58,279 nt of DNA, taken from a virus. Its lineage: Duplodnaviria > Caudoviricetes. Each line of letters starts with the position of its first letter. The first letter of the stretch is position 1. Below, one piece after another: positions 10,892 through 46,944 of this stretch. The notes beneath the pieces were generated by a model. It searched no databases and was not told where the DNA came from. It worked only from the letters and a program-made list of their open reading frames with translations. The translations under genes and the position numbers were made by a program. Location: positions 1 to 58,279 of the IMG/VR virus record IMGVR_UViG_3300025889_000139; one strand, 5' to 3'.

Positions 10892-11107
10892 ATGCGTATC
10901 ACAGATGTAATCACCAAGAAGAAAGAAAACAAGGAAGTTGAAAAGGGCGAAGAAAATAGCCCCTTGCAACAAGCCGATTGGGAAGATGCTGATGAACTAA
11001 TCAATGACGAAAATGGCTTCGTCAATCCAAAAGATGTTCCAGATGTTGATAAGTATATCAGGGCACACGATAAAAAAATAAAAAGATTGATGAAAAAAGA
11101 TAAATAA
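10892..11107 (+). CDS. Small hypothetical protein (MRITDVI N-terminus)
   Basis: 71-aa ORF; its stop lies inside the next GATAAATA late promoter. Confidence 0.6.
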   Translation: MRITDVITKKKENKEVEKGEENSPLQQADWEDADELINDENGFVNPKDVPDVDKYIRAHDKKIKRLMKKDK

Positions 11108-11145
11108 AAGTGTAGTTCGCGGTGGTGGAACACCCAACTACTCTA
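11099..11145 (+). promoter_or_regulatory. Late promoter plus conserved bulged hairpin leader (copy 1)
   Basis: GATAAATAAAAGTGTAGTTCGCGGTGGTGGAACACCCAACTACTCTA; gapless match to copy 2 (30203-30249, minus strand) with compensatory pairs. Confidence 0.85.
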
Positions 11146-13397: not shown

Positions 13398-13417
13398 TTT
13401 GAATCTCCTGTTTTTTC

Positions 13418-13460
13418 CAACTTACAAAGACAGTATAGCAGATTTTATGGGTTTGTCAAG
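13418..13460 (-). promoter_or_regulatory. Early promoter cassette
   Basis: CTTGACA-N16-(TGC)TATACT followed by GTCTTTGTAAGTTG. Confidence 0.85.
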
Positions 13461-13467
13461 TCTTTTT

Positions 13468-13803
13468 TTACATCGTCCAGTAACGGTCAGTGGAAGGGTC
13501 ACAAGCACCGCCCTTGTCGCCACGACGAATGGTAGCAGTGTTCACACTGCCAGTGTGAGGGTTGATGAAGGTGACTTCAACTTCTTCGTTCATAAACGAG
13601 TAGTACGCTTCTTTTACCAACTCTTTGGCTTCGCCAGCGGGACGCTTAGTGATGGTGGAAATGGCTTCGTCGCCAACGACAACGTAAGCATTGACTTTGC
13701 CGCTCTTGCGGGTCAGTTTACCAATCTCGGTGCGACCACGATAGCCGTTGTCAACAACGATGGTGCCATTGGTCTTGTCGTTCCACTTGAAAAGAATAGC
13801 CAT
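13468..13803 (-). CDS. Early hypothetical protein
   Basis: GGAG RBS, own early promoter; ends CDPSTDRYWTM. Confidence 0.75.
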   Translation of the reverse strand: MAILFKWNDKTNGTIVVDNGYRGRTEIGKLTRKSGKVNAYVVVGDEAISTITKRPAGEAKELVKEAYYSFMNEEVEVTFINPHTGSVNTATIRRGDKGGACDPSTDRYWTM

Positions 13804-13831
13804 TTGGTATCTCCGTAAACACTGTTTCTAT

Positions 13832-13874
13832 CAACTTACAAAGACAGTATAGCACATTATAACCATTTGTCAAG
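13832..13874 (-). promoter_or_regulatory. Early promoter cassette
   Basis: CTTGACA-N16-(TGC)TATACT followed by GTCTTTGTAAGTTG, identical to the 13418 cassette over 23 nt. Confidence 0.85.
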
Positions 13875-14056
13875 TGTTTTTTTCACATTTTCTTCGGTCA
13901 TATCACCAAGGTCTTCGCCATCGTTTAGTATAACCGATTCATGACCCATTTTAGCCAGTTTACGACCAGCAGCATCGCCATCACAAACACAGACAATGTG
14001 CCGATTCGTGGCTCGTAACCACGGACGCAGTTGCTTTGGGTCATTAGACAGGGCGG
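13857..14056 (-). pseudogene. C-terminal remnant of a TOPRIM-like protein, 5' part lost
   Basis: LSNDPKQLRPWL..IVCVCDGDAAGRKLAK..EDLGD (TOPRIM DxD.AG); no credible start or RBS; abuts an inverted insert. Confidence 0.55.
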
Positions 14057-15240: not shown

Positions 15241-15254
15241 CGGGTATCTCCTAT

Positions 15255-15297
15255 CAACTTACAAATAGAGTATAGCAGATTTTTAGGATTTGTCAAG
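15255..15297 (-). promoter_or_regulatory. Early promoter cassette
   Basis: CTTGACA-N16-(TGC)TATACT then CTATTTGTAAGTTG. Confidence 0.85.
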
Positions 15298-15888
15298 CAC
15301 TTTTATGAAGTTTTCTGTTGTCATCCATATACGGTTTTGTGAGTTCCACGATCCTACCTTGGGCCAAGTGCCAGGAAGTACATGAATAAACTGTATCTCT
15401 GGAAATAACCGATGGAGTTTGTTTATTTGATATATCCAGTATGATGGGTCAACGGGTCGGCGATCTGGTCCATCATAGTTTGGTGTTCCCTTATAGATGT
15501 TGTTATGGCGGTTTCCCATACTATAAATGTCAAAACCCAAAAAGTAAATCTTCTTGGGTTTCTGTAAACAAGCTAGGTATGCAGCGTAGGTTCCTGAACC
15601 CCAGTTCATAGGTTCATCAGCTTTATGTTCTGGTTTATATGGAAGCTCTGGTAGATACTGAACATACGGGTATGCAGCGAAACTTGAGTGCCATCTTGGT
15701 CGTGTATATATGGATATTCCCAAATCAGCAGCTTCCTCAACACATCGTCTATCTACCGCTATAAGGTATGTTGGATGAAAGTCGCGGCAGATGGCATTAC
15801 ATCCAAACGTGATATGTTTTTCTAGTTTGGTTAGGTCAAAACCTTTCCTAGTCTCACCATTTCCAAGTACCACGTATAACTGCTCCAT
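15283..15888 (-). CDS. DUF115/MptE/Maf-like putative glycosyltransferase
   Basis: VLGNGETR, FGCNA, LIAVD, GSGTYAAYLA, IYFLGFD. Confidence 0.6.
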   Translation of the reverse strand: MEQLYVVLGNGETRKGFDLTKLEKHITFGCNAICRDFHPTYLIAVDRRCVEEAADLGISIYTRPRWHSSFAAYPYVQYLPELPYKPEHKADEPMNWGSGTYAAYLACLQKPKKIYFLGFDIYSMGNRHNNIYKGTPNYDGPDRRPVDPSYWIYQINKLHRLFPEIQFIHVLPGTWPKVGSWNSQNRIWMTTENFIKVLDKS

Positions 15889-28336: not shown

Positions 28337-28714
28337 TTAGCTCTGTGTTTCCACGGATGCGCGATTGTCATCAGTAGTGTGGTCACCACCTTCTACACCC
28401 TCAAGCTCATAACCAATATTTGTTGCATCATCATACTGAATTGTACGATTACGTAGTTTAGTAACCTGAACAACAGTTGAATCATCAAGAACAGCATTGA
28501 CTGTGAATTCACCCGCTACGAGTGAACCTGTTTTGTCAACCAATGTAAGAACTTCAGTTGAAACACCATCGGAAACTGTGAACTCATATGTTGAACGCTG
28601 GTTAACAATCCAAGCGTTTGTTGTTAGTTCACTACCACCTGTGAAAAAGTGTCTTGAAACTTTGATACGACCAGCACCTTGACCAATCTTGTTTTTGTTA
28701 ATCGGACGACCCAT
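28337..28714 (-). CDS. Hypothetical late (probably virion) protein
   Basis: MGRPINK..; AAGGAG RBS, structured leader and GATAAATA promoter. Confidence 0.75.
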   Translation of the reverse strand: MGRPINKNKIGQGAGRIKVSRHFFTGGSELTTNAWIVNQRSTYEFTVSDGVSTEVLTLVDKTGSLVAGEFTVNAVLDDSTVVQVTKLRNRTIQYDDATNIGYELEGVEGGDHTTDDNRASVETQS

Positions 28715-28825
28715 TTTGTTTTCTCCTTATAATATGCCGTTCTAGGGCTACGGGGATGGTGTTCCCCATAAGTCTATCTCATAGGATAGTTCAGTAGTAT
28801 TTATCATAAAAGAGGATTTTATTGT

Positions 28826-29368
28826 TTAGTTTACCAAACTCCACCAAAAGGCATCTTTGTCTGACATAATATCATATGGACCATTTACTTGTTTGCCATT
28901 TAGATACCAAACTTTGGTTCCATCTGCATCTTCAACAGCAGGGCCATCTGTTCTATGAAGTTCGCCATTTAGCCACCAAACTTTGGTTCCGTCTGCATGT
29001 TCAACAGCAGGGCCATCTGTTCTATGTCGTTTGCCATTTAGATACCAAAATTTGCTTCCATCTGCATGTTCATAAGCAGGGCCATCTGTTCTATGTCGTT
29101 CGCCATTTAGATACCAATATTTGGTTCCATTTGCATGTTCAACAGCAGGGCCATCTGTTCTATGTCGTTTGCCATTTAGATACCAAAATTTGCTTCCATC
29201 TGCATGTTCAATAGCAGGGCCATCCGTTCTATGAAGTTCGCCATTTAGCCACCATTCTTTGGTTCCATCTGCATCTTCAACAGCAGGGCCATCCGTTCTA
29301 TGAAGTTCGCCATTTAGCCACCATTCTTTGTTTCCATCTGCATCTATTTCACAAATAGGTTCAGCCAT
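28826..29368 (-). CDS. 23-aa tandem repeat protein (WxLNGxxHRTDGPA, MORN-like beta-hairpin repeats)
   Basis: Six full and one partial 23-aa repeats; early promoter at 29402-29429; start could be 29383. Confidence 0.85.
   Translation of the reverse strand: MAEPICEIDADGNKEWWLNGELHRTDGPAVEDADGTKEWWLNGELHRTDGPAIEHADGSKFWYLNGKRHRTDGPAVEHANGTKYWYLNGERHRTDGPAYEHADGSKFWYLNGKRHRTDGPAVEHADGTKVWWLNGELHRTDGPAVEDADGTKVWYLNGKQVNGPYDIMSDKDAFWWSLVN
28890..29346. repeat. 69-bp coding tandem repeat (~6.5 units)
   Basis: AGCAGGGCCATC recurs every 69 bp. Confidence 0.95.
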
Positions 29369-29401
29369 GACGTAAACTTCCATAAAAGTTATCGTAAGGT
29401 T

Positions 29402-29430
29402 AGTATAGCATATTTTGATAGTTTGTCAAG
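29402..29430 (-). promoter_or_regulatory. Early promoter
   Basis: CTTGACA-N16-(TGC)TATACT; the -35 overlaps the stop codon of the endonuclease gene. Confidence 0.85.
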
Positions 29431-30184
29431 AGGATTCTTTACAGTTATCACCATGCCAGCGTGGATAAACATTTACAGCAACATCCTTGCCACAATGAAC
29501 GCAATGCTTCGTGGGACGCTTTAGACCAGTTTGTGATTTTGCTCTACGGGCTACAACTTCTGGGTCTTGTTTTCTTCCTTTCATAACAGCGGATAGTTTA
29601 GCCTTTTGTTCTTCACTCATAGGAACTCCTTTGTTATGTGCTGGCTTTCCTTTATTGGCTTGACTTATCTTGTCTCTGGTTTCCTGTTTTACTTCTTTTC
29701 CATATCGTGGGTTATTTTTTCCCATCATTATTTTTGACATATTTTCTCGGTATTCAGGTGTTTTACAATAGTCCTTGTTTTGTCCTTTTAGTGCTTCGCT
29801 AATTTTTTGTTTGTGTTCTTCGCTTTTGGGAACACCGGATAATGCTTCGCTTATCTTTTGGAAACTTTCTTCCGTGGCAAAGATTGCCCCAGCAATATTA
29901 CCATTTAGGTATCTTGAATCATGCTGAACCTGATTTTCTACCAAATACTTTTCTTCATACGCAATAGCATCATCCCTATTATCAAAGACTTTATCAATCT
30001 CCACAATAAAACTATCAGCACCATATTCAGCAATAAGTTGATGAACCCTTGATGATGATGTGAAATAATCCACCCAAAGGTCTTTTTCGGGTTCCATATT
30101 TTTTCTATTGACAGAGTAGCGCACTCCGTAGTATAATGTGTTCGTTGGTTTATGAGTTAGTAAATAAGTATATGCTGTATACAT
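29426..30184 (-). CDS. GIY-YIG-like homing endonuclease with NUMOD3 repeats
   Basis: YTYLL..YYGVR, YFTSS, AIAYEEKYL, YLNGN; KSEEHKQKISEA and MSEEQKAKLSA NUMOD3 motifs; CVHC..WHGDNC. Confidence 0.85.
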   Translation of the reverse strand: MYTAYTYLLTHKPTNTLYYGVRYSVNRKNMEPEKDLWVDYFTSSSRVHQLIAEYGADSFIVEIDKVFDNRDDAIAYEEKYLVENQVQHDSRYLNGNIAGAIFATEESFQKISEALSGVPKSEEHKQKISEALKGQNKDYCKTPEYRENMSKIMMGKNNPRYGKEVKQETRDKISQANKGKPAHNKGVPMSEEQKAKLSAVMKGRKQDPEVVARRAKSQTGLKRPTKHCVHCGKDVAVNVYPRWHGDNCKESS

Positions 30185-30202: not shown

Positions 30203-30249
30203 TAGAGTAGGTAGAGGTTGCCGCCTCGTGACCTACACTTTTATTTATC
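30203..30249 (-). promoter_or_regulatory. Late promoter plus conserved bulged hairpin leader (copy 2)
   Basis: Minus strand GATAAATAAAAGTGTAGGTCACGAGGCGGCAACCTCTACCTACTCTA. Confidence 0.85.
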
Positions 30250-30282
30250 ATTATCGCACTATCAAATATAAAAAGTCAATAT

Positions 30283-34471: not shown

Positions 34472-36169
34472 TCAAATATCAAGGTCTTCACCGCCCTCAA
34501 CAGGAGTTCCGCCTTCGTCTTCTAGACCCATATCATCTCCCATATCAGGCTGTTCGGGATCGGCAAGTTCCATATCACTCTCGAAACCACCAGGACTCAT
34601 ACCAATACCGCGCATACTTTCTCCGCTAATAGGTAATGTATCGTCTTGAGAATTTTCTTCACGCCACATCTCATCATTCTCTTGCATCTCTTCTTCTGTA
34701 AGACCGAGATAGCGTTTCATTAGAAAACGTTTCGCCATATATGGTTCATCTTTCAGTTGTGTAAATGTACTAATACGGTTACTATCCACCTCTACTTGTC
34801 GATAGGCAGCAAAATTTTGTGGTTCATTGAAACGTAAGTCAAACACAGAGTTATCAATCTCAAGACCACGGTAAGAAAGGAAAATTTTGAATTCTTGGTC
34901 AAGTGTTGGAGCAATAAGAGTTTGTAATCCCATGCAGAAGTCGTTATATACCTGTTCTTCCATCAAGGATTGGCCTAATTTCCCATCATTATAAGCAGAG
35001 TTTCCGTCACTTGAGAAGGTTGAGATATATGTTTTCGGTACACGCAATCCGTGTAGTAATAGATTGTTGAAATATAATAGGTCATTAATCTCGCCAAGGT
35101 TAGAACCACCTTCTAATGTTTCCACACTTGAACCACGACCATCAGCAGTTGTTGGGAAGAAATAATCCTCACCAGTTGATAGTGGGTTATATGTAGCATC
35201 CATAGCATTTTGACCACCGTTTACAGACGGTAGACGCTTTTGATGGATTTCGTTCTTTACACGCTCAACAAAAGCCATAGCCATATGGGAAGGCATATTA
35301 CCTACATCAATCTTGAATACACGGCGTTCTGGGGCACGTTGAATACGGTAGATTAGGATTGCGTCTTCAAGAAGTTCTTTCTGCTTGAATACTTTATAGA
35401 TTTTCTCAAGAATGGATGTACCGAAAGGCCAAGATACATCAAGTCCTTCTGTTAGGGTACAATGAACAATGTGTTCAACAGCAATAGCATTCTCGTTGAT
35501 TTGTTGTTCAAAACGAGAACCACCATCCATAGCATACCCACCCTGTGGCTGTAAATAACTTTGATTTACACTTGTTCCGGTAGACGTTACGCCAGTTGAT
35601 GCATCCTGGTGTGTATGCTGGGTCATCGTCATGTTTTCGAAGTTTGGGTTGATGTTTCTAAGAACGTATTGCTCTGGTTTCTTACCATCACCTTCGTTCA
35701 CGATAACTTTAACAACATCTTCCATCGTAACCCAGTATAACTCCATTGTCTCTGGATCACGGATAAATACTTGGTCACCGTACTTGATGGTGTTTCTGAA
35801 AATCTTGAAGATACGTTTTTCAAAATCGTTAATTTTCCACCATTGGATAAGTGCTTCACGGAGCATCTTGATTTCATTATCAGTTGCTTTTTCGTTGAAA
35901 TAAATGTCGAAAGAAGTACCGTTCTCTACGTTTTTCTGTGTGCAAGAACGAGCAATAATGTCTAGGGCAGCATTGACTACAGCATCAGCATCCATATTCT
36001 CATATTGAGCATATCGTTCAATACGGTTAGGGTGACCAGTATATACATCTGGTAGATTGTTTGCCCAGTTTCCATACCCAAAGGAGTCTGTATTACTATG
36101 ACCAGCGTTCGCATGGGTCAATGGGCTGGATGTAGAACTGTGTAGTTTAAAGTGTTTGCGCCAAGACAT
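34472..36169 (-). CDS. gp20: Portal protein
   Basis: LLEDAILIYRIQRAPERRVFKIDVGNMP, EDYFFP..GRGSSVETLEGGSNLGEINDL. Confidence 0.97.
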   Translation of the reverse strand: MSWRKHFKLHSSTSSPLTHANAGHSNTDSFGYGNWANNLPDVYTGHPNRIERYAQYENMDADAVVNAALDIIARSCTQKNVENGTSFDIYFNEKATDNEIKMLREALIQWWKINDFEKRIFKIFRNTIKYGDQVFIRDPETMELYWVTMEDVVKVIVNEGDGKKPEQYVLRNINPNFENMTMTQHTHQDASTGVTSTGTSVNQSYLQPQGGYAMDGGSRFEQQINENAIAVEHIVHCTLTEGLDVSWPFGTSILEKIYKVFKQKELLEDAILIYRIQRAPERRVFKIDVGNMPSHMAMAFVERVKNEIHQKRLPSVNGGQNAMDATYNPLSTGEDYFFPTTADGRGSSVETLEGGSNLGEINDLLYFNNLLLHGLRVPKTYISTFSSDGNSAYNDGKLGQSLMEEQVYNDFCMGLQTLIAPTLDQEFKIFLSYRGLEIDNSVFDLRFNEPQNFAAYRQVEVDSNRISTFTQLKDEPYMAKRFLMKRYLGLTEEEMQENDEMWREENSQDDTLPISGESMRGIGMSPGGFESDMELADPEQPDMGDDMGLEDEGGTPVEGGEDLDI

Positions 36170-38296: not shown

Positions 38297-38364
38297 AATT
38301 ATATACCGCCATTATTAATCAAATAAATATTCATACAGATATTTATCGTTATGGAGTTATCAAT

Positions 38365-39201
38365 ATGAATACAAATCCACTACAAAGTTACTTTCGTGTG
38401 CCGGCATTAGTTCTAGAACTTCCGAGTAAAGGAGAATGGTATCCTGAAGGAATGCTTGCAAGTGATAACGGCGAAGTAGAAGTTTTCCCAATGACGGCAA
38501 AAGATGATATTATTCTCCAAACCCCTGATGCTCTTTTAAATGGTTCTGCTACTAGAAAAATTATAGAAAGCTGCATACCTTCCATAAAGGATGCTAACTG
38601 GGTTCCATCTATTGACCTTGATTCTATTTTAATCGCTATCAGAATTGCTTCGTATGGCGAGACACTAACTATAACTTCTGAATGTCCGAATGAACAATGT
38701 AGAAACGTAGATGATTATAAAATAGACTTATCAAGTGTTCTAGATAGAATACAAGTTCCCGATCTAAATGTTCCCGCTGTATATAAAGATTTAAAAATAT
38801 TTTTTAAACCACAAAACTTTAAGACTATAAACTCTAAGAACTTAGAAGCATATGAGCAAAAAAGAGCTATAATGGTAGCAACAAATAAAGATGAAGATGA
38901 AGAGAATAGATTGTTTATCCTCAACGATATTGTAGCAAAAATTGCGGATTTGACATTAAATCAGATAACCGATAGTATATTATATATAGAAATGCCCGAT
39001 GGTAAAAAAATTGATAACGTTGTACATCTAAATGAGTTTATTGATAACTGTGATAGAATCACATACGAGGCAATAAAGAAAAAGATATTCGAAATGAATG
39101 CTAAAAATGAAAAGATATCCGATATGCATATCACTTGTGATAAGTGCGGAAATGAATATATTACTAAACTTTCATTGGAATTTTCTGATTTTTTCGGGTA
39201 A
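38365..39201 (+). CDS. Baseplate hub assembly protein (gp26-like) / tail assembly chaperone
   Basis: LELPSKG, FPMTAKDDI.L, DLDSILIAIRIASYGE, CPNEQC and CDKC; ends DFFG*. Confidence 0.75.
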   Translation: MNTNPLQSYFRVPALVLELPSKGEWYPEGMLASDNGEVEVFPMTAKDDIILQTPDALLNGSATRKIIESCIPSIKDANWVPSIDLDSILIAIRIASYGETLTITSECPNEQCRNVDDYKIDLSSVLDRIQVPDLNVPAVYKDLKIFFKPQNFKTINSKNLEAYEQKRAIMVATNKDEDEENRLFILNDIVAKIADLTLNQITDSILYIEMPDGKKIDNVVHLNEFIDNCDRITYEAIKKKIFEMNAKNEKISDMHITCDKCGNEYITKLSLEFSDFFG

Positions 39202-39236
39202 GGCTTTTACAGCTAGATAACCAGAGCATTGTAAAA

Positions 39237-39425
39237 ATGCTGAAAGATATGGAAAAGTCTGTAAAAGCCATCAAGAAAAACTTACTTGTTATATGCTGGA
39301 ATATGAGAGGAAGTATTAGCTACAGTGAAGCAATGCATTTGAGTAGTGAAGAAATGGAAATCATTTCATCTATCATAAGCGATAATATGGAAGTAACGAA
39401 TAAGTCAGGACTTCCTTATTTCTAG
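39237..39425 (+). CDS. gp51-like small protein; probable -1 frameshift extension of the upstream ORF
   Basis: CWNMRGSISYSEAMHLS.EE; no RBS; the -1 frame is open back to the slippery T TTT TTC at 39189. Confidence 0.65.
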   Translation: MLKDMEKSVKAIKKNLLVICWNMRGSISYSEAMHLSSEEMEIISSIISDNMEVTNKSGLPYF

Positions 39426-39956
39426 TTATGGATTTGCAGCATCCCACGCCGCTTGTACTGCCGCCTGATCAGTTGCTGGAACAAAACCGGCGCCGGTAAT
39501 TCTTAACCACTGTGAACCATTCCATTTATGACCGACACCCAAATAATCGATCCTACTATTAGGAGCAGGCCCAGCAGGCGGTGTATCTGTCATTTTCTTA
39601 CTAAATTTATCTTTTGCTCTATTAATAACTAGTTGTGTTAGATATTCTTTGATATCATCACCGCTATTGTATGGTGGAGTCGTTTTGGATAAATCGTTTT
39701 CATTGAAAACTTTACCTACAAACATTTTTAACAGTTTATCGATTGCATCTTGTTTAACTACTGGGTCGTTATCTTCAAGTTCTGGGTTATCCGGAGTATA
39801 TTTACCTATAGTCGATATCCAAAGATCATGGACTTTTTTTGCGGAAACTTTAGCAACATGCATTAGTTTCTTTTTATCCAGCTTTTCTTTGGTCTTACTC
39901 AATCCCTTTCTAATAGAATCGATTGGACCTTCAGTAATAATTTCATGTGTTTTCAT
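39426..39956 (-). CDS. Putative internal head protein
   Basis: Start MKTHEIITE-G, 8 nt after the GATAAATA promoter. Confidence 0.6.
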   Translation of the reverse strand: MKTHEIITEGPIDSIRKGLSKTKEKLDKKKLMHVAKVSAKKVHDLWISTIGKYTPDNPELEDNDPVVKQDAIDKLLKMFVGKVFNENDLSKTTPPYNSGDDIKEYLTQLVINRAKDKFSKKMTDTPPAGPAPNSRIDYLGVGHKWNGSQWLRITGAGFVPATDQAAVQAAWDAANP

Positions 39957-39974
39957 AGTACAGTTATTTATCAG

Positions 39975-40490
39975 TAATCGATGAACTACGTTCATCGGTG
40001 TAACTCATAACTTCGTTTCGCTTCGCTGCACTCAGTTATTCATTCCACATTTCATTCCATAGTTATTGGGGCTTAAAATTTTAGAACTGAATAGTTCTTA
40101 TTTCCACTATTTCTGTAGATTTTGGGCATACTTCTCCTATCCGCAGGAGAAGTAAAAAAAGCCGTACTCTTTCTGTGAGTTTCTACAGCATTTACCTAAA
40201 GGGGATTTCCTAAGAACGAAGGCGATTAGCCGTTACCTCCTACCCCAGCTTCCTCTAATGGACCCTCACATCCCGTAGATAACCAAGATGAGTTTTGGGC
40301 TGCGGTTGTACCTTTTTCACAGTGCCGCAATCATTTGAGCCGTAAGTGTCTCTGCCTCCCACGCATGGACGCATAATGCGAGCCGTCCTGACGCATAATT
40401 AAAACATATTGTGTGGGTATTTTGTGCCTATTGTGCCTAAATGGGATGTCCCGGAGGTATGCCTGATTGTGCCTAAGTTTTATGCCTTAC
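39975..40490 (-). ncRNA. Candidate large structured non-coding RNA (or replication origin)
   Basis: ~500 nt with no ORF of 60 aa or more, many hairpins, and an upstream TTGACT-N18-TATAAT promoter. Confidence 0.55.
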
Positions 40491-40497
40491 AGATACT

Positions 40498-40527
40498 ATT
40501 ATATATGCTTTATAAATCAAGAGTCAA
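40498..40527 (-). promoter_or_regulatory. Sigma70-type promoter reading into the non-coding locus
   Basis: TTGACT (40527-40522) -N18- TATAAT (40503-40498). Confidence 0.55.
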
Positions 40528-40547
40528 TTTTTTTTATAAATAAAAAC

Positions 40548-41276
40548 ATGACAGACGAAATCAGAGAATTAAATGGTATAAAATACCTGACACCGAATCG
40601 CAGATGTGTGAAACGTGTAGAAAGAATACACATAAAAGATGAATTGGGGATGCGATGGCTGCATACACAATCCGAAGGAGATATCTTATTAGATGTCGGT
40701 GGGAATGTCGGTATGTATGCTCTGCCAGCCGCTTTCAAACATAAGTTACGAGTTTACGCATTTGAACCCGAACATAGGAATTACTCTTTATTATGTAGAA
40801 ACATCATCTTGAACGGGTTACAAGATCAAATAACCGCTTATTGTCTGGCTGTAAGTGATAAGATGGATTTTAATGAGCTATATATAAATGGCATTGAAGA
40901 CGGTACATCATGTCATTCATTTGGAGAAGAACTTGATTATAACCTAAATCCAACTAAATCTGCCGCCAAACAAGGATGTATGTCCATTACTATTGACCAG
41001 TTTATGGAAAACCGAAGTGTTGAGAAGGATATTCATTTAAAAATTGATGTAGATGGCTTTGACTATAAGGTTATTCTTGGTGCTGAAAAAACTCTACAAA
41101 ATCCAAAAACCAAGTCTGTTATTATGGAAATAAATACGAACCTAGAAAAGCATAGAAACGTATTCGGAATAATGGAAAATCATGGTTTTGAAATGGTTGA
41201 ATCGTGTGTGCGTTCAGAAGGAAATTTTGTCGGTGTAGGTAATCACGTATTCATACGTTCACATATCAGACCTTAA
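40548..41276 (+). CDS. FkbM-family SAM-dependent methyltransferase
   Basis: LLDVGGNVGMY, VYAFEP, LKIDVDG; start MTDE after TATAAATA. Confidence 0.9.
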   Translation: MTDEIRELNGIKYLTPNRRCVKRVERIHIKDELGMRWLHTQSEGDILLDVGGNVGMYALPAAFKHKLRVYAFEPEHRNYSLLCRNIILNGLQDQITAYCLAVSDKMDFNELYINGIEDGTSCHSFGEELDYNLNPTKSAAKQGCMSITIDQFMENRSVEKDIHLKIDVDGFDYKVILGAEKTLQNPKTKSVIMEINTNLEKHRNVFGIMENHGFEMVESCVRSEGNFVGVGNHVFIRSHIRP

Positions 41277-41840
41277 AGATATCACTAATGTACGTCTTGT
41301 CTTGATGCCGTCTGATTTATAACTATGCCACGCATTTTCATTTCTACTAAAACTAAAAGCACGATTTTTTAACCAATCTACTTGTCTGGCGTTTTCACCA
41401 TCCTCACTATCGTATAACCAAGTACCTTCATTATAGTCAGAAATGTATATCACCGTTGTTAGTAGTTTATCGGGTTTGTCTGAGTGAATACGAAATACAT
41501 AATCTTTTCCAACGTTAACGATATTGAACGTAGTATGGGTATGATGTTCAACCTTCTCTGGGGCCAAACGTTGTAAAACTTCCTTTAACTTCGGTTCATA
41601 TAAATTCCGCATATTGATAACGGTTTCATCGGATAAGTTATGATACCCTGGATTATATGATTTAACATGCTTGAACTGGGTATTTCTTCGTAAAAAATTA
41701 GATACTACATTTGATTCCAAATCTATGGTATGATTGTACACATCCCAATCTAATGGTCCTGTGTCGAAATCCATGTTTTCCGCAAGAGACAAATGTTCAG
41801 CGGATAAAAAATCGTCTATAATCTCATAGGGGGGCCACAT
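41259..41840 (-). CDS. 2OG-Fe(II) oxygenase
   Basis: IIDDFLS, HSD..KLLTTVIY, WHSY, RRTL (HxD..H..R). Confidence 0.85.
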   Translation of the reverse strand: MWPPYEIIDDFLSAEHLSLAENMDFDTGPLDWDVYNHTIDLESNVVSNFLRRNTQFKHVKSYNPGYHNLSDETVINMRNLYEPKLKEVLQRLAPEKVEHHTHTTFNIVNVGKDYVFRIHSDKPDKLLTTVIYISDYNEGTWLYDSEDGENARQVDWLKNRAFSFSRNENAWHSYKSDGIKTRRTLVISLRSDM

Positions 41841-42285
41841 TTTTTCTCTTAAACTCCGTTTCTTTTAGTGTTTCTTTTGGAGGTCTAAATTTTACAGCGG
41901 CAATATTTCCGTTGTAGTATTTCCGTTCTCCGTTCTCTAATTCTTCAAGAAGAACATTTTCTTCAACTTGAATCTTTACTTCTGCATAGTATAAGCTACC
42001 TTTTGTCTCGTGTAGAGACTCGATATGGAACTCATAGTTCTCTTTGCCATGCTGTTCGATGGCAGCGTTAAGATGTGTGGAAGAGCCGGTATAGGTTTTC
42101 CAATCCGACTCTTTCCTCACAACTTTACGATTCTTTCTTGATTTGAGCTTGACCCTTCTAGTAGACTGAAACTGTTTCTTTCCAATATACTGTCTACCAG
42201 TATGCTTTTCGGTTATACGATAGATAAAACCGAACCATTCAGAAGGATCAAACTCATGGGGAAATTCCCAATGTCCTGTATCCAT
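41824..42285 (-). CDS. GIY-YIG nuclease (T4 endonuclease II/DenA-like)
   Basis: GFIYRIT..RQYIGKKQF, ESDWKTYTGSS, YYNGNI. Confidence 0.8.
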   Translation of the reverse strand: MDTGHWEFPHEFDPSEWFGFIYRITEKHTGRQYIGKKQFQSTRRVKLKSRKNRKVVRKESDWKTYTGSSTHLNAAIEQHGKENYEFHIESLHETKGSLYYAEVKIQVEENVLLEELENGERKYYNGNIAAVKFRPPKETLKETEFKRKNVAPL

Positions 42286-42293
42286 ACAGGTAT

Positions 42294-42470
42294 TTACATA
42301 GAGTTTTTCTTTTCTTGAATTTCCGCACGACGAGTTTTGGCTAGTTTACCTAGTTCACCTAGTGCTTTACGGGCACGTGCTGCCGCAGCCTTCACACTCT
42401 TAGTTTCAAAAGCTTCGCTTTCTTTAAGATAAGCTTCGTATTGTTCTACAATTTGTTCATGTGTAGTCAT
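42294..42470 (-). CDS. Small Hc1-like (histone H1-like) basic protein
   Basis: Below the ORF-track cutoff; MTTHEQIVEQYEAYLKESEAFETKSVKAAAARARKALGELGKLAKTRRAEIQEKKNSM; GGAG RBS. Confidence 0.75.
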   Translation of the reverse strand: MTTHEQIVEQYEAYLKESEAFETKSVKAAAARARKALGELGKLAKTRRAEIQEKKNSM

Positions 42471-43777
42471 TGTAATCTCCTTGATATTTCTTTTATAATA
42501 TTTAATTCTTCACGGACTCTTGGTTGAGCATATCCACATTCGTATGTTTTTGTGTGTAGCTCAAGTCTTCTTCTTATTCGTTCCTTTAAATCTAACTTGT
42601 TATATATCCAATCATACGAGTCAAGTTTAGTATATTGTAGCATACTATGTATAGGTGTGTCCATATTTATATGCATCGTTGTTCCCCAACGCATTAATTC
42701 AATAACCGATTGTGCGTAATCTTTATATCGTTCTAATCCACCTAAGTTTTGCTGATGATCGTAAAGTGTTTCTGTCGGGTAACCTGTAATCATAAGCCAG
42801 ATGTTCTTGATACCGTAAAATCCAGATTGTTGAATATGATAATCTATATCGGCATTACTAAACTTTTTACGCATGTGATTTCTTACGTCTTCGCTAAAAC
42901 TTTCTATACCAATAGTTAGTTGGTCACATCCAGCATAATACATTGCTTCGTAATGGTGTGATGGCATTTGGTTACGAGGACGACAAATAGCCTGTCCTGC
43001 ATATTTGACGTTAAGGTTACTTTCTGATATAGCAACATTCATATTGTAGAAGTTGCTAACGGACCCGTTAATGAGACTATCTGTAAAGTCGAAGTATGAT
43101 ATACCTATTGTATTAATATGATGTTTCATTTCTTCTACAATATTCTTACCAGACCTATACCTAAACTGCGGCCAAATATTCTGAATATCGCAAAAAGTAC
43201 AACGGCGAACACATCCACGTGAACCCGTCATATAAACTTTATCTGAGGTATACTTGGATAAATCAAAACCCTCATACGATGGGAAAGGGAAGTCATCTAG
43301 ATTTTCACCATATTCTTTCCCAACTAGAAGTTTCCGCATAAAATTTTCAGCATCACCATAACAAACGTGATTTGCATATTCGCCGATCCAATCTTTAGCG
43401 TTATTACATCCATTTCCACCAGCGATAACTGGAATAGGTGATTTTATGGATAATAAAGTCTTAGCTGGATTTAAACTCCAATAACTAAAAATGCTCACAC
43501 AAAGGTAGTCGTAGTCAGTTGCTACATTGTACACATTATCGCACCATAAAGATATAAGCTTATTCTCGATGTCTTTGGGTAAATCATTGATGATATTCAT
43601 ACACCAATCGTTGAGTTTTGCATATTCATCGTCGGTCATATTAGTCTTGCATATATGAACAAAGTCAACAATAGTTGTATCGCAACCACAATCCTTTGCG
43701 ATTCCGTTTAAAATACCTAATGCTGCTGACGGTGCTACAAGGTCAAGCCTTGGCAGATTTACCAAAAGTAGTTTCAT
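42467..43777 (-). CDS. B12-binding radical SAM enzyme (class B methyltransferase-like)
   Basis: N-terminal Rossmann/cobalamin-like region (PSAALG..VIAGG..GDAE), GSRGCVRRCTFC, IGIES, ITGYPTET. Confidence 0.88.
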   Translation of the reverse strand: MKLLLVNLPRLDLVAPSAALGILNGIAKDCGCDTTIVDFVHICKTNMTDDEYAKLNDWCMNIINDLPKDIENKLISLWCDNVYNVATDYDYLCVSIFSYWSLNPAKTLLSIKSPIPVIAGGNGCNNAKDWIGEYANHVCYGDAENFMRKLLVGKEYGENLDDFPFPSYEGFDLSKYTSDKVYMTGSRGCVRRCTFCDIQNIWPQFRYRSGKNIVEEMKHHINTIGISYFDFTDSLINGSVSNFYNMNVAISESNLNVKYAGQAICRPRNQMPSHHYEAMYYAGCDQLTIGIESFSEDVRNHMRKKFSNADIDYHIQQSGFYGIKNIWLMITGYPTETLYDHQQNLGGLERYKDYAQSVIELMRWGTTMHINMDTPIHSMLQYTKLDSYDWIYNKLDLKERIRRRLELHTKTYECGYAQPRVREELNIIKEISRRLQ

Positions 43778-44162
43778 TTAGTTCGTTTACTAATTCCTTG
43801 TGTTCTAGTCTTCCAATGTAAAAGTCATATTCATCGCCTGATGTATCTGTCAACCCGAAATGTTCCATCTTGGATTGCTCTACCATTGACTTATATAATT
43901 CCCAAAACTTTTCATGATAGTAGTCCATACTTATCATATGATCAAACTGTTGTATGTCAGCAAGGTAATAGTCAAGCATAATATGATCCATTCTAACCAC
44001 TGGTTTTATTTTCCAAGGTTCAAAAAATACACGAATTCTGCATGTCCTATCAAGTTTGATATAATAACAGTCCTTCATCTTTTTAGGCTTGACAACAACA
44101 TCGTCAATTTCAAACCTAATCATATTGAACTGTCCTTGCACACTAAACAAACTCATCACCAT
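43743..44162 (-). CDS. Hypothetical protein
   Basis: ORF overlapping both radical SAM neighbours; start uncertain. Confidence 0.6.
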   Translation of the reverse strand: MVMSLFSVQGQFNMIRFEIDDVVVKPKKMKDCYYIKLDRTCRIRVFFEPWKIKPVVRMDHIMLDYYLADIQQFDHMISMDYYHEKFWELYKSMVEQSKMEHFGLTDTSGDEYDFYIGRLEHKELVNELNETTFGKSAKA

Positions 44163-45151
44163 TCACTTGCTGTTTCAAGTGTTACTTCACTAGACTTACA
44201 TTTAGTCTGGCATTCATACCACTTGAAAGTTTTGAACTCATTATCCCAGAAGTCATCTTGTAGAATATCTGGTAATGATCTTTCATAAAGACTGAACTTA
44301 CCTTGCCAATCATCATTATGTGCGTAACGATTTGCAACCCAACAACAAGGATAAAATTCACCACGACTGTTTATAAACAATCCCTTTGATCCTATTCTAC
44401 ATAATGGTTTAACGCCATTCTCGACCGGGGTGTTCATATAATATTTTGTCGTGTCCCTTTTGCCGTAATCATCCCGATTGGTAAAATAAGTGACTTGGCG
44501 TTGAAATCTGTTTGTTGTGCTTACTAACTTGGAGCTTGGCTCAAGTGGGTCATTCTCTCCGTATCTTGGATAGAAGCTACCGAACTTTGTGCTGAGTGTA
44601 AGCTGAAACTTATCGAAGCCTTTGTTCTTTGCCATTTCTTTCATAATATGGATCATATTCTCGTTAAACTTGAAAGCTATGGCGTCCCACACAACATAGG
44701 CTTTGGATTTTATCATAGCATCAATGCCAACGCAGATGGATTCCCAATCTGATCCGACACGGTATTGTTCATTACTTTTCTGATCCCATCCATCAAGGCT
44801 AAAGTGGATAACATCTTGTTCGCCCATAAGCATACCAAGCTTGCGCCACCACATAGCATCCTTGTAACTACCATTGGTGACAATAACTATCTGTATATCT
44901 TTGTTCATAGTCTTTAAGTGCTTTATGATTTGTATAAGATCAGTCGTATAAATTGGATCACCATCGTCGCCGCAGAATGTAATCTTCTTGACCTCTTGCA
45001 TTACTTCCTTTGTGAAGTTTCGCTGAAAGAAGTCAAGACGCAACTGAGTATTCAGAAGCGTCTCTGGGACTTCCGTTCTGGCACAACGCAAACACTTTAG
45101 TGTGCATCGCGAGCTTGATTCAATATGATAATGCCATCTTGCTAAACTCAC
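44156..45151 (-). CDS. Radical SAM enzyme with SPASM/Twitch domain
   Basis: CTLKCLRC, FCGDDGDP, VTNGS, FSLDG, GEFYPCCW..CQTKC. Confidence 0.9.
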   Translation of the reverse strand: MSLARWHYHIESSSRCTLKCLRCARTEVPETLLNTQLRLDFFQRNFTKEVMQEVKKITFCGDDGDPIYTTDLIQIIKHLKTMNKDIQIVIVTNGSYKDAMWWRKLGMLMGEQDVIHFSLDGWDQKSNEQYRVGSDWESICVGIDAMIKSKAYVVWDAIAFKFNENMIHIMKEMAKNKGFDKFQLTLSTKFGSFYPRYGENDPLEPSSKLVSTTNRFQRQVTYFTNRDDYGKRDTTKYYMNTPVENGVKPLCRIGSKGLFINSRGEFYPCCWVANRYAHNDDWQGKFSLYERSLPDILQDDFWDNEFKTFKWYECQTKCKSSEVTLETASEW

Positions 45152-46944
45152 AATATCTCCACATCTGTCGCGTAACTAGTATAACCGTTTTCTTTCGTTA
45201 CGGTTAGAACGTTATTTACACGTGATGCGAGGTCATCTTTATGACTAACAAGCCACACTGATTTCTTACGATCACGAGAAATCTTCTTCAAGATACCGAT
45301 ACTGCTATCAACACCACTGGTATCCATACCACTATCAATCAACTCGTCAATAAACAATAGATTAACTGGGTGATATAGATTTTCCCATACATCACGAAAT
45401 GCCCAAGATAGACTTAGGATTAGACGGTTCCGTTCTCCACGGGATAGGTTATCAAAGTCAAGATCACGACCATATTCTGTAATCTCAACACTTAAATCGT
45501 TCTGGAACTCCACAGTATGTGGTAATCCAATCTTGTCTAGATAATACCCAAGACGATTATTTAAGAACGATAGGTTCTGGTCAATAATTTTCTTACGGAT
45601 ATAGCTATCCTTGTTAGTCAATAGCTTCAATAAGAATTCTTGGTGGTCTTTTAGTTTTGATAAATCATTTAGCGTATCATAGCTAATATCAGTCAAAGCT
45701 TCATTTTTCAACTGATTAATCTGTTCGCTATACGGGTCAGTTTCTTTCTGTGTTTCTTCAATCTGGGTAGTAAGATAGTTTAATGTAGAACTATGATTAT
45801 GTGCCTCGTGTAGTTCTTCATAGAATGTTTCTGGTTTAGGTCCAATATGTTGGTCGGTAGCCAGTTGTGAAGAGATATCATCAACTAACTCCTTCGCTTC
45901 ACGATATTCTTCTTCCGCACTATCCCATTCACGCCTTGCCTCGTCAATAAGATGTTCGTGTTTATCGTCGTGTAGTTCCTGTTCACAGGTAGGACATTTC
46001 ATATCCTTGGCTGTGTCGTAGTTATTCTTAGCTTTATCCAGATGTTTATCTGCCCGTTTCAAGGTTGTCTCTGCTGATGACAGTTCTTTCGCCAAAGCAT
46101 CCGCTAAAGCTTTCCGTTCTGTCCACTCCTTTAGTTCGGCATGAGCATCTAGTTCTGCTTGGATATCCAGATGGCTAAGTTCTTCCAACTGTTCCGCAAG
46201 TTTATCCAACTTTTCCTTATGAGATTTTTTCCAAGCTTTTTGTCGTAGTTCAAGATTCTTGATGGTATCGCCAATCTTTTCATTGGACTGTTTGATAGTA
46301 GCAATACGAACTTCCTCATCACGAATAAGGTCTTTTGTACCTGGAATGTCGTTTGGTTTGTCACCATTCAACACTTTCTTTAGGTTATCTGCCTTCTCAC
46401 TGAGTAAGGTGATACCAAGTAACTGTTCAATGACATTCCGTTGCGGTGCCGCTGGCATACTGAGAAAAGGTTGAGTATAAGTGTTCAGCGCAAGAATGTG
46501 TTTGAACATATCGTGCGTCATTGCTAATAGGCGTTCAATCTCTTCCTGTGTTTTGCGACTATCACCTTGCGCTTCGTCATCCATCATCTGCTCTTGGTCT
46601 TCGATAAAGAAACGAAGGAAGTTTGGTTTACGACCACGTTCAATACGATATGTAAGTCCGTCCTTCTCAAACTCAACGGTACATACCATATTCTTACCAT
46701 TGGTTTTATTGATGAGGTTATTGACTTTGATTTTAGTCAATGCGTTCCCATACAACACATATGACAATGCGTTGATGATTGTTGTCTTACCAGTTCCGTT
46801 ACGTGCGCCAGCATCATCACCGCCTTGATCTAAGTTTTTACCAAGTACGAGTGTGAGATCATCGCGGTTGAAATCTACAGCTTGGGTTTGGTTACCCACG
46901 CTCATAAAGTTTTTAACTGTCAATGCGCGTATACTGAAAGTCAT
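45148..46944 (-). CDS. gp46: Recombination endonuclease subunit (SbcC/Rad50-like)
   Basis: KNFMSVGN, GARNGTGKT, CPTC zinc hook, LSRGE signature, LLFIDE, VSH. Confidence 0.95.
   Translation of the reverse strand: MTFSIRALTVKNFMSVGNQTQAVDFNRDDLTLVLGKNLDQGGDDAGARNGTGKTTIINALSYVLYGNALTKIKVNNLINKTNGKNMVCTVEFEKDGLTYRIERGRKPNFLRFFIEDQEQMMDDEAQGDSRKTQEEIERLLAMTHDMFKHILALNTYTQPFLSMPAAPQRNVIEQLLGITLLSEKADNLKKVLNGDKPNDIPGTKDLIRDEEVRIATIKQSNEKIGDTIKNLELRQKAWKKSHKEKLDKLAEQLEELSHLDIQAELDAHAELKEWTERKALADALAKELSSAETTLKRADKHLDKAKNNYDTAKDMKCPTCEQELHDDKHEHLIDEARREWDSAEEEYREAKELVDDISSQLATDQHIGPKPETFYEELHEAHNHSSTLNYLTTQIEETQKETDPYSEQINQLKNEALTDISYDTLNDLSKLKDHQEFLLKLLTNKDSYIRKKIIDQNLSFLNNRLGYYLDKIGLPHTVEFQNDLSVEITEYGRDLDFDNLSRGERNRLILSLSWAFRDVWENLYHPVNLLFIDELIDSGMDTSGVDSSIGILKKISRDRKKSVWLVSHKDDLASRVNNVLTVTKENGYTSYATDVEIL

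Follow-up and report, generated by a model that had tools for sequence, protein, structure and literature searches.

What occupies the one long stretch without a gene in an otherwise gene-dense piece of phage DNA? The stretch lies at positions 39957-40547 of the IMG/VR virus record IMGVR_UViG_3300025889_000139, a complete record of 58,279 bp with a completeness rating of 16%, which is called the window throughout. The window carries T4-type genes for a gp20 portal, a gp26-like baseplate hub and a gp46/Rad50-like protein (Table 1), its portal is nearest to those of the jumbo phages PA5oct and Atu_ph07 (46% identity), and DNA near-identical to the window is present in freshwater metagenome runs. 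Comparison of homologous loci shows that the minus strand from 39979 to about 40352-40412 is the predicted gene for a large (~430-nt) structured non-coding RNA (ncRNA) of a widespread, unnamed family. Taken as a whole, the explanation headed by a large structured phage ncRNA gene is the best one, with a probability that we put at roughly 80%.

The gap is the longest stretch of the window free of open reading frames (ORFs) and measures ~590 nt between the likely start codons of its neighbors, an ATG at 39956 on the minus strand and an ATG at 40548 on the plus strand. When ORFs of at least 50 amino acids (aa) are called greedily, the longest uncovered piece is 39996-40466 (471 nt), followed by pieces of 305 and 167 nt, which bears out the statement of an earlier sequence-only reading that this is the only long gap of a gene-dense window. 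That reading saw no signature of a tRNA, tmRNA, RNase P or intron, and we agree: ARAGORN predicts no tRNA or tmRNA gene in the entire window, and the cmscan against Rfam 15 that it had proposed leaves the locus without a family at gathering score. In 39700-40800, at E ≤ 10, the scan returns only SNORD98 (15.4 bits) and RefA5 (14.3 bits), both far under their gathering scores. The GC content is 0.44-0.52 across 40100-40400, against ~0.35 in the surroundings.

Homologues were not reached by direct searches. Neither blastn nor megablast of the gap and the 10 kb around it matched any of 50,697 GenBank phage records, an exact 22-mer had no match in IMG/VR, the route via the methyltransferase gene next to the gap led to no locus, and none of seven gp26 relatives (35% identity) has similar DNA. 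The lead came from Logan contigs of four runs compared across 38300-42300. A contig from another organism matched 40204-40256 at 83%, and its loose end, used as a pattern, led to an IMG/VR locus (L009). Its genes are, in order, gp46, one of radical-SAM/SPASM type and one for a GIY-YIG protein of 154 aa, after which come 395 non-coding nt and then a convergent gene. The non-coding DNA aligns to the minus strand of the window with evident compensatory changes. With blastn, the window RNA matches a further locus (L010) at 69% over 348 nt (E 6e-25) as well as L009; among 80 loci around GIY-YIG relatives the element was found by blastn in L010 and L014 only. A degenerate pattern of 23 letters for the loop of helix P2, derived from four sequences, then matched at least 120 IMG/VR stretches where, by our own arithmetic, fewer than one is expected by chance.

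Profiles built without the window and L010 gave one nhmmer match each, 40347-40197 (minus strand, E 2.3e-25) for the central domain and 40161-39977 (minus strand, E 9.9e-5) for the 3' domain, and these are the sole matches in 58 kb. Besides being found by such a query-free profile, the window copy has the P2 loop, the pseudoknot together with the G.U pair in helix P4, and the twin modules with P7, P8 and P9. Among prokaryotes, sampled as one genome per species, the loop pattern was found twice, with ~0.5 chance matches expected by our arithmetic. One match belongs to a complete member of the family, whose 6-kb contig was binned into a metagenome-assembled genome (MAG) of Flavobacterium. The other (L216, 1501-1523, minus strand) lies on a 468,790-bp alphaproteobacterial MAG contig of 65% GC and has the same 23-nt loop on a GC stem and no other part of the RNA; it may be due to chance or to an independent use of the hairpin module. 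Among GenBank phages, the elements of the window and of L137 have no blastn match other than, at E ≤ 10, two chance matches of 19 nt within a dCMP deaminase gene, and the loop pattern with up to three mismatches is absent from Melnitz, phiN3, P-HM1, PA5oct and Atu_ph07. Many uncultured myoviruses from lakes and seas, both T4-like and jumbo, carry the RNA.

From 5' to 3', the alignments show P1, P2 with its loop, P3, a pseudoknot on a G-rich helix, P5, twin modules flanking P7, the boxed GNRA-type hairpin P8 and finally P9 (Table 1). P1 is directly followed by the conserved joiner AAAUGAU (40336-30). The family signature is the P2 loop with the pattern C-W-CUGUGAAA-M-AG-R-N-ACAA, which window 40329-40301 fits, and P7 is followed by a conserved UAUGCC (40130-25) that reads UAUGAC in most members. 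All of the stems named in the sequence-only reading are found where it had placed them, and those that it gave as CGATGAAC/GTTCATCG (P9), ATAACT/AGTTAT (P8), the 10-bp TACTTCTCCT/AGGAGAAGTA (P7) and TGCGG/CCGCA (P2) are conserved, covarying helices. Relatives do not uphold three other elements of its fold: the multiloop closure CTGTAGA/TCTACAG uses a twin module that nowhere else has a conserved partner, GGC/GCC (40221-40231) conflicts with the covarying pseudoknot, and AGAACT/AGTTCT sits in a variable linker without support from relatives.

Table 1. Coordinates of the RNA parts and of neighboring features in the window (parts of the RNA are listed 5' to 3')
Feature	Position	Strand	Description
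Sigma-70-type promoter	40527-40498	minus	-35 TTGACT 40527-40522, 18-nt spacer, -10 TATAAT 40503-40498; 11/12 matches
Variable 5' leader	40353-40491	minus	Five AGGCA repeats: 40487-83, 40474-70, 40464-60, 40438-34, 40429-25
P1 hairpin	40337-40352	minus	GAGAC 40352-48, loop ACUUAC, GGCUC 40341-37
P2	40301-40329	minus	UGCGG 40329-25 with CCGCA 40305-01; closes near-invariant 19-nt loop CACUGUGAAAAAGGUACAA 40324-06
P3	40262-40300	minus	Long irregular hairpin; sequence varies between members; read by eye, alignment unreliable there
Pseudoknotted core	40201-40259	minus	AUUAG 40259-55 pairs with CUAAU 40229-25 in P4 loop
Outer helix	40246-43/40204-01	minus	GGGG with CCCC
P4	40240-36/40222-18	minus	GGAGG with CCUUC, third pair G.U
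P5	40216-07	minus	Small hairpin, GNRA-capped in several members; by eye
Module A	40161-40189	minus	Hairpin GCUGUA 40189-84/UACGGC 40166-61; loop CUC + ACAGAAAGAG (X1, 40179-67)
P7	40129-40154	minus	Perfect 10-bp hairpin UACUUCUCCU/AGGAGAAGUA
Module B	40107-40119	minus	UCU + ACAGAAAUAG (X2), 60 nt downstream of twin X1
P8	40007-40039	minus	AUAACU 40039-34/AGUUAU 40012-07 around conserved GAGYG-NAA-GCGAAA box 40033-13
P9	39979-39997	minus	3'-terminal hairpin CGAUGAAC GUA GUUCAUCG
gp20 portal gene	34472-36169	minus	T4-type
gp26-like baseplate hub gene	38365-39201	plus	T4-type
176-aa orphan ORF	39426-39956	minus	Gap neighbor, downstream of RNA
Strain-specific cassette	40548-41840		FkbM-type methyltransferase gene and 193-aa ORF
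FkbM-type methyltransferase gene	40548-41276	plus	Gap neighbor on the other side
193-aa ORF	41259-41840	minus	
SegE-type GIY-YIG gene, 153 aa	41824-42285	minus	PF19835, E 1.3e-36; co-oriented with RNA
gp46/Rad50-like gene	45148-46944	minus	T4-type

The evidence for this fold comes from the homologues. Sixty-two members were aligned after the removal of near-duplicates, and two sub-alignments were made, A7 with 43 rows for the central and A8 with 41 rows for the 3' domain; pairs were counted on MAFFT alignments with helices drawn on one reference row, which somewhat favors the drawn register. In the central domain (five helices, 23 pairs), 91.5% of cells are paired against 73.2% after shuffling, 19 of the 23 pairs have changed on both sides, and the covariation of 0.487 (shuffled, 0.160) was reached by none of 500 shuffles, slid controls giving 0.06-0.14. 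The 3' domain, whose 25 pairs belong to P7, P8, P9 and an inner hairpin of two pairs, behaves alike, with 86.3% paired against 66.2%, 21 of 25 pairs changed on both sides and a covariation of 0.530 against 0.187, again reached by 0/500 shuffles. We regard the effect as real because the slid controls are low and the pair types many. Weaker is the canonical 5' domain in the alignment of all members, with 67.7% paired against 54.2% and a covariation of 0.372 against 0.200, its pair-count and pair-type measures falling within the shuffles (reached by 158/500 and 174/500).

Among single helices of the central domain (43 members), the H-type pseudoknot is paired in 98.5% of cells with covariation at 5/5 pairs, and the window copy has both of its strands; the outer helix is paired in 97.7% with 4/4 covarying pairs, P4 in 100%, and P2 in 89.3% with 3/5 covarying. 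All four pairs of P1 change on both sides, but in the MAFFT alignment no more than 65.5% of its cells pair. In the 3' domain, changes on both sides affect 6/9 pairs of P7 (89.0% paired), 6/6 of P8 (81.2%) and 7/8 of P9 (90.5%). From the MAFFT alignments, RNAalifold retrieved the structure in part only, and P3, P5 and the module-A stem (traced by eye in the window copy and in several relatives) were therefore left out of the counts.

Of the twin modules, module A consists of AUGAC, 9-11 nt, ACUC and a purine-rich 7-mer (X1) that lies in a hairpin loop, and module B of UAUGAC, 5-7 nt, AUCU and X2. Within one RNA, X1 and X2 agree in all seven letters in 52 of 62 members, while 27 different 7-mers occur across the family; when partners are shuffled, a mean of 5.3 and a maximum of 13 rows are identical. 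Among the five lowest-scoring rows, at least L124 reflects a shift in the extraction of the modules. In the window, X1 (40179-67) and X2 (40119-07) share ACAGAAA, and so the twofold minus-strand recurrence of this motif, which had been remarked upon before any homologue was at hand, is real and a feature of the whole family. By eye, the module type does not track the nuclease family found beside the RNA. To our knowledge, twin covarying modules have no counterpart in any known RNA.

The surroundings of the RNA were counted over 77 distinct loci with flanks, 71 of which have an upstream ORF of at least 80 aa, with Pfam assignments at E ≤ 1e-5. The nearest upstream ORF is co-oriented with the RNA in 65/71 and mostly ends 110-180 nt before the loop motif. 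It belongs to SegE_GIY-YIG in 37 loci, PDDEXK_15 in 13, NUMOD3 in two, DUF454 in two, and HTH_39 and PNP_UDP_1 in one each, with no match in 15; GIY-YIG forms of ~355 aa and NUMOD3/HNH genes are also found beside the RNA. Downstream ORFs are convergent in 46/65, and the RNA is therefore not a 5' leader; in 8 of 16 loci tested the downstream gene is the T4 baseplate hub gene gp26, which is the arrangement of the window. The GIY-YIG protein itself is widespread, being matched by 842 GenBank phage records. In three cultured examples (Melnitz, phiN3 and P-HM1) its gene has no gap behind it, and in 78 of the 80 IMG/VR loci closest to the window protein the loop motif is absent within 1.5 kb. Of the earlier proposal that the RNA may be partnered with the nearby GIY-YIG protein, the genomic association stands (37/71 loci; a distance of ~270 nt in related strains), and other counts argue against a dependence (78/80 loci without the motif; PDDEXK in 13/71).

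Between strains, the RNA is better conserved than the protein genes around it. The contig of run X7 has no substitution in 39902-40310 and seven in 39478-39901, and that of run X14 has two differences and one gap in the 350 nt of 40048-40397, against 13 differences in 302 nt of the GIY-YIG gene. DNA left of ~39990 in X14 is unlike the window. The contigs of both runs omit ~1520-1600 nt (40398/40476-41997), and with them the methyltransferase gene and the 193-aa ORF, and have 178 or 269 other letters instead; with joints from 40397 or 40475 to 41998, the GIY-YIG gene comes to lie close to the RNA, at ~270 nt. This polymorphism also gives the GIY-YIG gene another 3' end. The 176-aa ORF has no relative beyond its own 90% cluster among 5.8 billion protein clusters, and it is swapped for other sequence in X14. 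Further upstream in the window, between gp46 and the GIY-YIG gene, 42294-45151 (minus strand) holds a histone H1 homologue of Hc1 type (58 aa) and two radical-SAM genes, one of them with SPASM; the order gp46, radical-SAM/SPASM, GIY-YIG is common to the window and L009.

The RNA strand is the minus strand of the window. This follows from the third pair of P4, a fixed G.U in 38 of 43 members, from the counted helices taken together, in which 101 cells are G.U and 53 are A-C, from the GNRA-type loops of P5 and P8, which by eye read on the minus strand, from the co-orientation of the upstream ORFs, and from the direction of the window promoter. The claim that a TTGACT-N18-TATAAT promoter points into the locus was correct, and this site is the best of six promoter-like sites in 39000-41500, where such sites are not enriched (9.8 expected). 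A transcription start near 40491 is predicted from it. The promoter DNA is absent or diverged in related strains. Three of the five window copies of TAGGCAYA lie within the 5' leader, and WAGGC is enriched upstream of the RNA family-wide (0.77 per locus against 0.19 shuffled), with a site at 27/61 loci. AGGCA was rejected as a general promoter motif of the phage: TTAGGCA occurs three times in 58 kb, where 7.2 are expected, and two of the three are at this locus.

The ends of the RNA are less sharply defined than its body. Window 40353-40412 aligns neither to the canonical 5' domain of other members (a hairpin, CAUUGAGG and a long-range helix) nor to the Polynucleobacter-1 domain described below, and it is the part least conserved between strains, with eight substitutions in 40311-40412 in run X7. 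The 5' boundary, predicted at about 40412/40352, is uncertain. At its 3' side the RNA probably ends with the P9 hairpin (39997-39979), 22 nt short of the ATG of the orphan ORF; a terminator scan gave nothing at 39979-39997, and P9 does not have the form of an intrinsic terminator.

Does this RNA belong to a class that has already been described? The window RNA has no cmscan match in Rfam 15, which includes GOLLD, ROOL, OLE, HEARO, raiA, group I and II introns, RNase P, 6S, tmRNA, riboswitches and ribozymes. One Rfam family, Polynucleobacter-1 (RF01718, 141 nt), does match part of the RNA in some relatives. Five of 12 loci scanned (L108, L113, L118, L119 and L131) have a full-length match of 38.7-96.8 bits (gathering score 37) directly 5' of P1/P2, ~30-190 nt upstream of the loop motif, where it replaces the canonical 5' domain. 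None was found in L137, L105, L009, L095, L100 and L092 at E ≤ 10 or E ≤ 1, or in the window copy at E ≤ 10. In those five loci Polynucleobacter-1 is evidently one domain of a larger RNA, and its annotation as a stand-alone small RNA or cis-regulator may need revision. The motif is listed as likely cis-regulatory, from Burkholderiales and fresh water (Weinberg et al., 2010, PMC2864571), and we found no other paper that names it. Like it, the RNA described here is found in freshwater and estuary sequences; unlike it, this RNA has the conserved core from P2 to P9, which the Polynucleobacter-1 model excludes.

Other large or nuclease-linked systems resemble this RNA in part. The large ornate RNAs GOLLD, ROOL, OLE and raiA (Rfam; PMC12286853) are likewise several hundred nt long and known from comparative analysis, with covarying helices, pseudoknots and GNRA loops, partly phage-borne and of unknown function; the RNA described here differs in matching none of their Rfam 15 models and in its setting, between a small nuclease gene and a baseplate hub gene of T4-like myoviruses. 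By analogy, the HEARO or omega RNA of IscB and the reRNA of TnpB may be compared, as structured RNAs beside a small nuclease gene with segments that vary between elements. Here, however, the nucleases are GIY-YIG or PDDEXK rather than RuvC/HNH and mostly occur without the RNA, and there is no transposon end or target match. Free-standing homing endonucleases offer another likeness, as varied nuclease families (GIY-YIG of the short and ~355-aa forms, PDDEXK and NUMOD3/HNH) edge a conserved stretch and recombination joints fall there. In T4, segB lies in the tRNA cluster and mobE in nrd. The conserved neighbor in the present case differs in being a non-coding RNA gene. One article states in its title that the borders of genetic exchange between phages are taken up by nuclease genes (PMC10055350).

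A survey of candidate structured RNAs in IMG/VR shares its data source and class of method with this work and reports 8495 models of 29-151 nt (PMC10690425); its text holds no fitting T4-like or baseplate item and no mention of GIY-YIG, and fragments of this RNA may be among its models. A preprint (10.64898/2026.10.21.760802) does not mention GIY-YIG, T4-like, myovirus, homing endonuclease, bacteriophage or baseplate, and literature searches by text gave no fitting item on a large phage RNA or on one that is T4-like or linked to GIY-YIG. As far as the literature and Rfam 15 could be searched, the RNA class is undescribed. The candidate put forward by the sequence-only reading, a large structured and undescribed phage ncRNA, is therefore sustained, with a covarying family that includes a pseudoknot, lies on the promoter strand and is absent from Rfam 15.

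How, then, would such an RNA be made and what could it do? In this phage the RNA appears to have its own transcription, because it has a promoter and because a 1.3-kb cassette separates it from the GIY-YIG gene. It would be transcribed alone from TTGACT-N18-TATAAT and end at P9, upstream of the 176-aa orphan ORF. More tentatively, at well below an even chance, the RNA may act in trans as a folded scaffold or decoy whose two identical single-stranded modules would each take up one copy of a shared partner. Such a partner could be an RNA-binding protein that forms dimers or a nucleic acid with a pyrimidine-rich repeat. Action by a folded body rather than as plain antisense is suggested by the pseudoknot, the GNRA loops and the long invariant unpaired runs, and a partner in two copies by the presence of two identical exposed modules. 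Because different nuclease families and the joints between strains are found at the edge of the most conserved DNA, we give about even odds to the small GIY-YIG and PDDEXK genes being homing-endonuclease-like passengers beside a conserved gene and not cofactors of it. As passengers, they would leave the RNA as an important gene and not the servant of the nucleases.

Several observations weigh against this account. No RNA sequencing run is among the 18 listed runs that carry this DNA, and we therefore infer the ends of the RNA and even its transcription. A sigma-70 match of 11/12 is found upstream in just two of the 62 loci (the window and L120); L104, L128 and L014 have weaker matches at comparable distance and most of the 62 have none, so that the majority of copies may share a transcript with the nuclease gene. 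After P9 there is no U-tract, the hairpin being followed by AUUACUGAU. The MAFFT alignments are imperfect, and the count of A-C cells is not negligible. The minimum free energy of the single sequence is no better than chance, with a z-score of -1.34 on the minus (RNA) strand and -2.32 on the plus strand; this unremarkable fold means that significance comes from homologues only. No partner for a trans-acting role was found: neither the RNA nor the locus around it has a complement of the modules at a recurring position, and in the window they are not enriched (14 against 8.9 expected). The adjacency to a nuclease, seen in 50/71 loci, would also be expected of a functional pair.

Some of these points suit an element that acts in cis from the 3' untranslated region of the nuclease gene upstream. 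It would share the transcript of that gene and control the stability, 3' end or translation of the mRNA, for example to tame a toxic endonuclease. The upstream ORFs have the appropriate orientation and mostly the appropriate distance, they are nucleases in the share of loci just given, and most loci lack an intervening sigma-70-like promoter. In the window, however, a 1.3-kb cassette with an opposite-strand gene intervenes, yet the RNA is the best conserved DNA and has its own promoter. The upstream family also changes (GIY-YIG, PDDEXK, NUMOD3, DUF454, or none in 15/71) where the RNA remains constant, and ~450 nt with a pseudoknot and GNRA loops far exceed, by general knowledge, the needs of known 3' stabilizers; such an element is unlikely. 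The adjacent small nuclease might instead have the RNA as its cofactor, guide or inhibitor, in the manner of IscB with HEARO or omega RNA, the twin modules setting specificity; this we regard as improbable. The same upstream slot is indeed taken by two unrelated small nuclease folds (37/71 and 13/71), most of the GIY-YIG proteins are ~140-150 aa and match the catalytic SegE_GIY-YIG domain only, and the modules vary between phages while being identical within an RNA, as a guide might. Yet the GIY-YIG gene is common without the RNA, both in the 78/80 loci and in Melnitz, phiN3 and P-HM1 with neither gap nor motif; 15/71 RNA loci have no recognizable upstream nuclease, the type of module, judged by eye, is not tied to the nuclease family, and no complementary target was found. 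A bolder form, which is quite unlikely, would make RNA and upstream nuclease one machine, the modules guiding a GIY-YIG or PDDEXK domain of 140-170 aa; if true, lytic phages would possess an RNA-directed nuclease of a new kind, with a use in homing or in attacks on competitors. In a variant of it the RNA would form a new ribozyme class.

The alternative raised together with the RNA itself was an origin of the T4 oriF/oriG type, at which a transcript from the promoter would stay behind as a persistent R-loop and prime DNA synthesis, the AGGCA repeats serving as protein-binding iterons. In T4, oriF lies within uvsY, next to genes 25 and 26. The promoter is indeed present and directed into non-coding DNA, the locus lies beside the gp26 hub gene, WAGGC is fourfold enriched upstream and the modules are purine-rich. 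The covarying fold is poorly explained, as an R-loop primer has no need of intramolecular helices, a pseudoknot or GNRA loops and pairs with its own template, so nothing would hold two modules identical; the core, with the GC content given above, is not an AT-rich unwinding element, and fewer than half of the loci have a WAGGC site. An origin is thus very improbable. A self-cleaving or otherwise catalytic RNA of a new ribozyme class would, by general knowledge, account for the size, the pseudoknot, the fixed G.U, the GNRA loops and the long invariant unpaired stretches, but no known family matches and the flanking genes are whole, which leaves no intron-exon context; we hold it to be decidedly improbable. 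A group I intron with a GIY-YIG ORF was rejected, as the radical-SAM gene of L009 is complete, its end overlaps the start of a self-contained GIY-YIG ORF, and no ORF continues across the RNA. A non-functional locus, be it a gene in decay, what is left of acquired DNA or a set of chance hairpins, would fit the insignificant single-sequence fold and flanking genes that are strain-specific or orphan; against at least 120 homologous loci, compensatory changes, near-zero divergence between strains and stop-to-stop frames of at most 51 aa within the gap, its probability is next to nothing, and with it falls the degraded coding sequence that had been named beforehand as a possible refutation. Also dropped, by eye, as fitting part of the family or lacking a defining feature, were a MotA-box middle promoter, C/D-box k-turns, translational bypass of the gene-60 type, a tRNA-Ala-like G3.U70 minihelix and the target-site duplication of a miniature element; a sponge of CsrA sites was dropped since GGAUGA is present in some members only.

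Few large RNAs have intricate conserved folds, and those found to date (RNase P, group I and II introns, tmRNA, omega RNAs, and GOLLD, ROOL and OLE with their cage-like assemblies) have each opened new biology. The phage ncRNA gene described here gives the orphan Rfam motif Polynucleobacter-1 a place within a larger RNA in some phages, and its adjacency to two unrelated nuclease families leads to testable ideas, namely that the RNA is a homing target, a regulator or a cofactor.

Elsewhere in the window, 28712-28790 (minus strand) is a full-length match to the Rfam family freshwater-2 (RF02980; 57.6 bits, gathering score 49.9) just upstream of an ORF at 28337-28714 (minus strand). Near it, 28822-29442 consists of seven head-to-tail copies with a period of 69 nt in the ORF 28826-29383 (minus strand), which would encode a 23-residue protein repeat. 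A repeat of ~74 nt is present in three copies (13414-13487, 13828-13901 and 15251-15324; 66-100% identity); on the minus strand it reads TTGACAAA, a spacer and TATACT, and resembles a repeated early-promoter cassette. Finally, the intergenic segments 11096-11145 and 30203-30252 form a pair of 50-nt inverted repeats, 76% complementary and 19 kb apart, each with ATAAATAAAAGTGTAG followed by a GC-rich stretch, which may be a late-promoter-like box with a shared leader.

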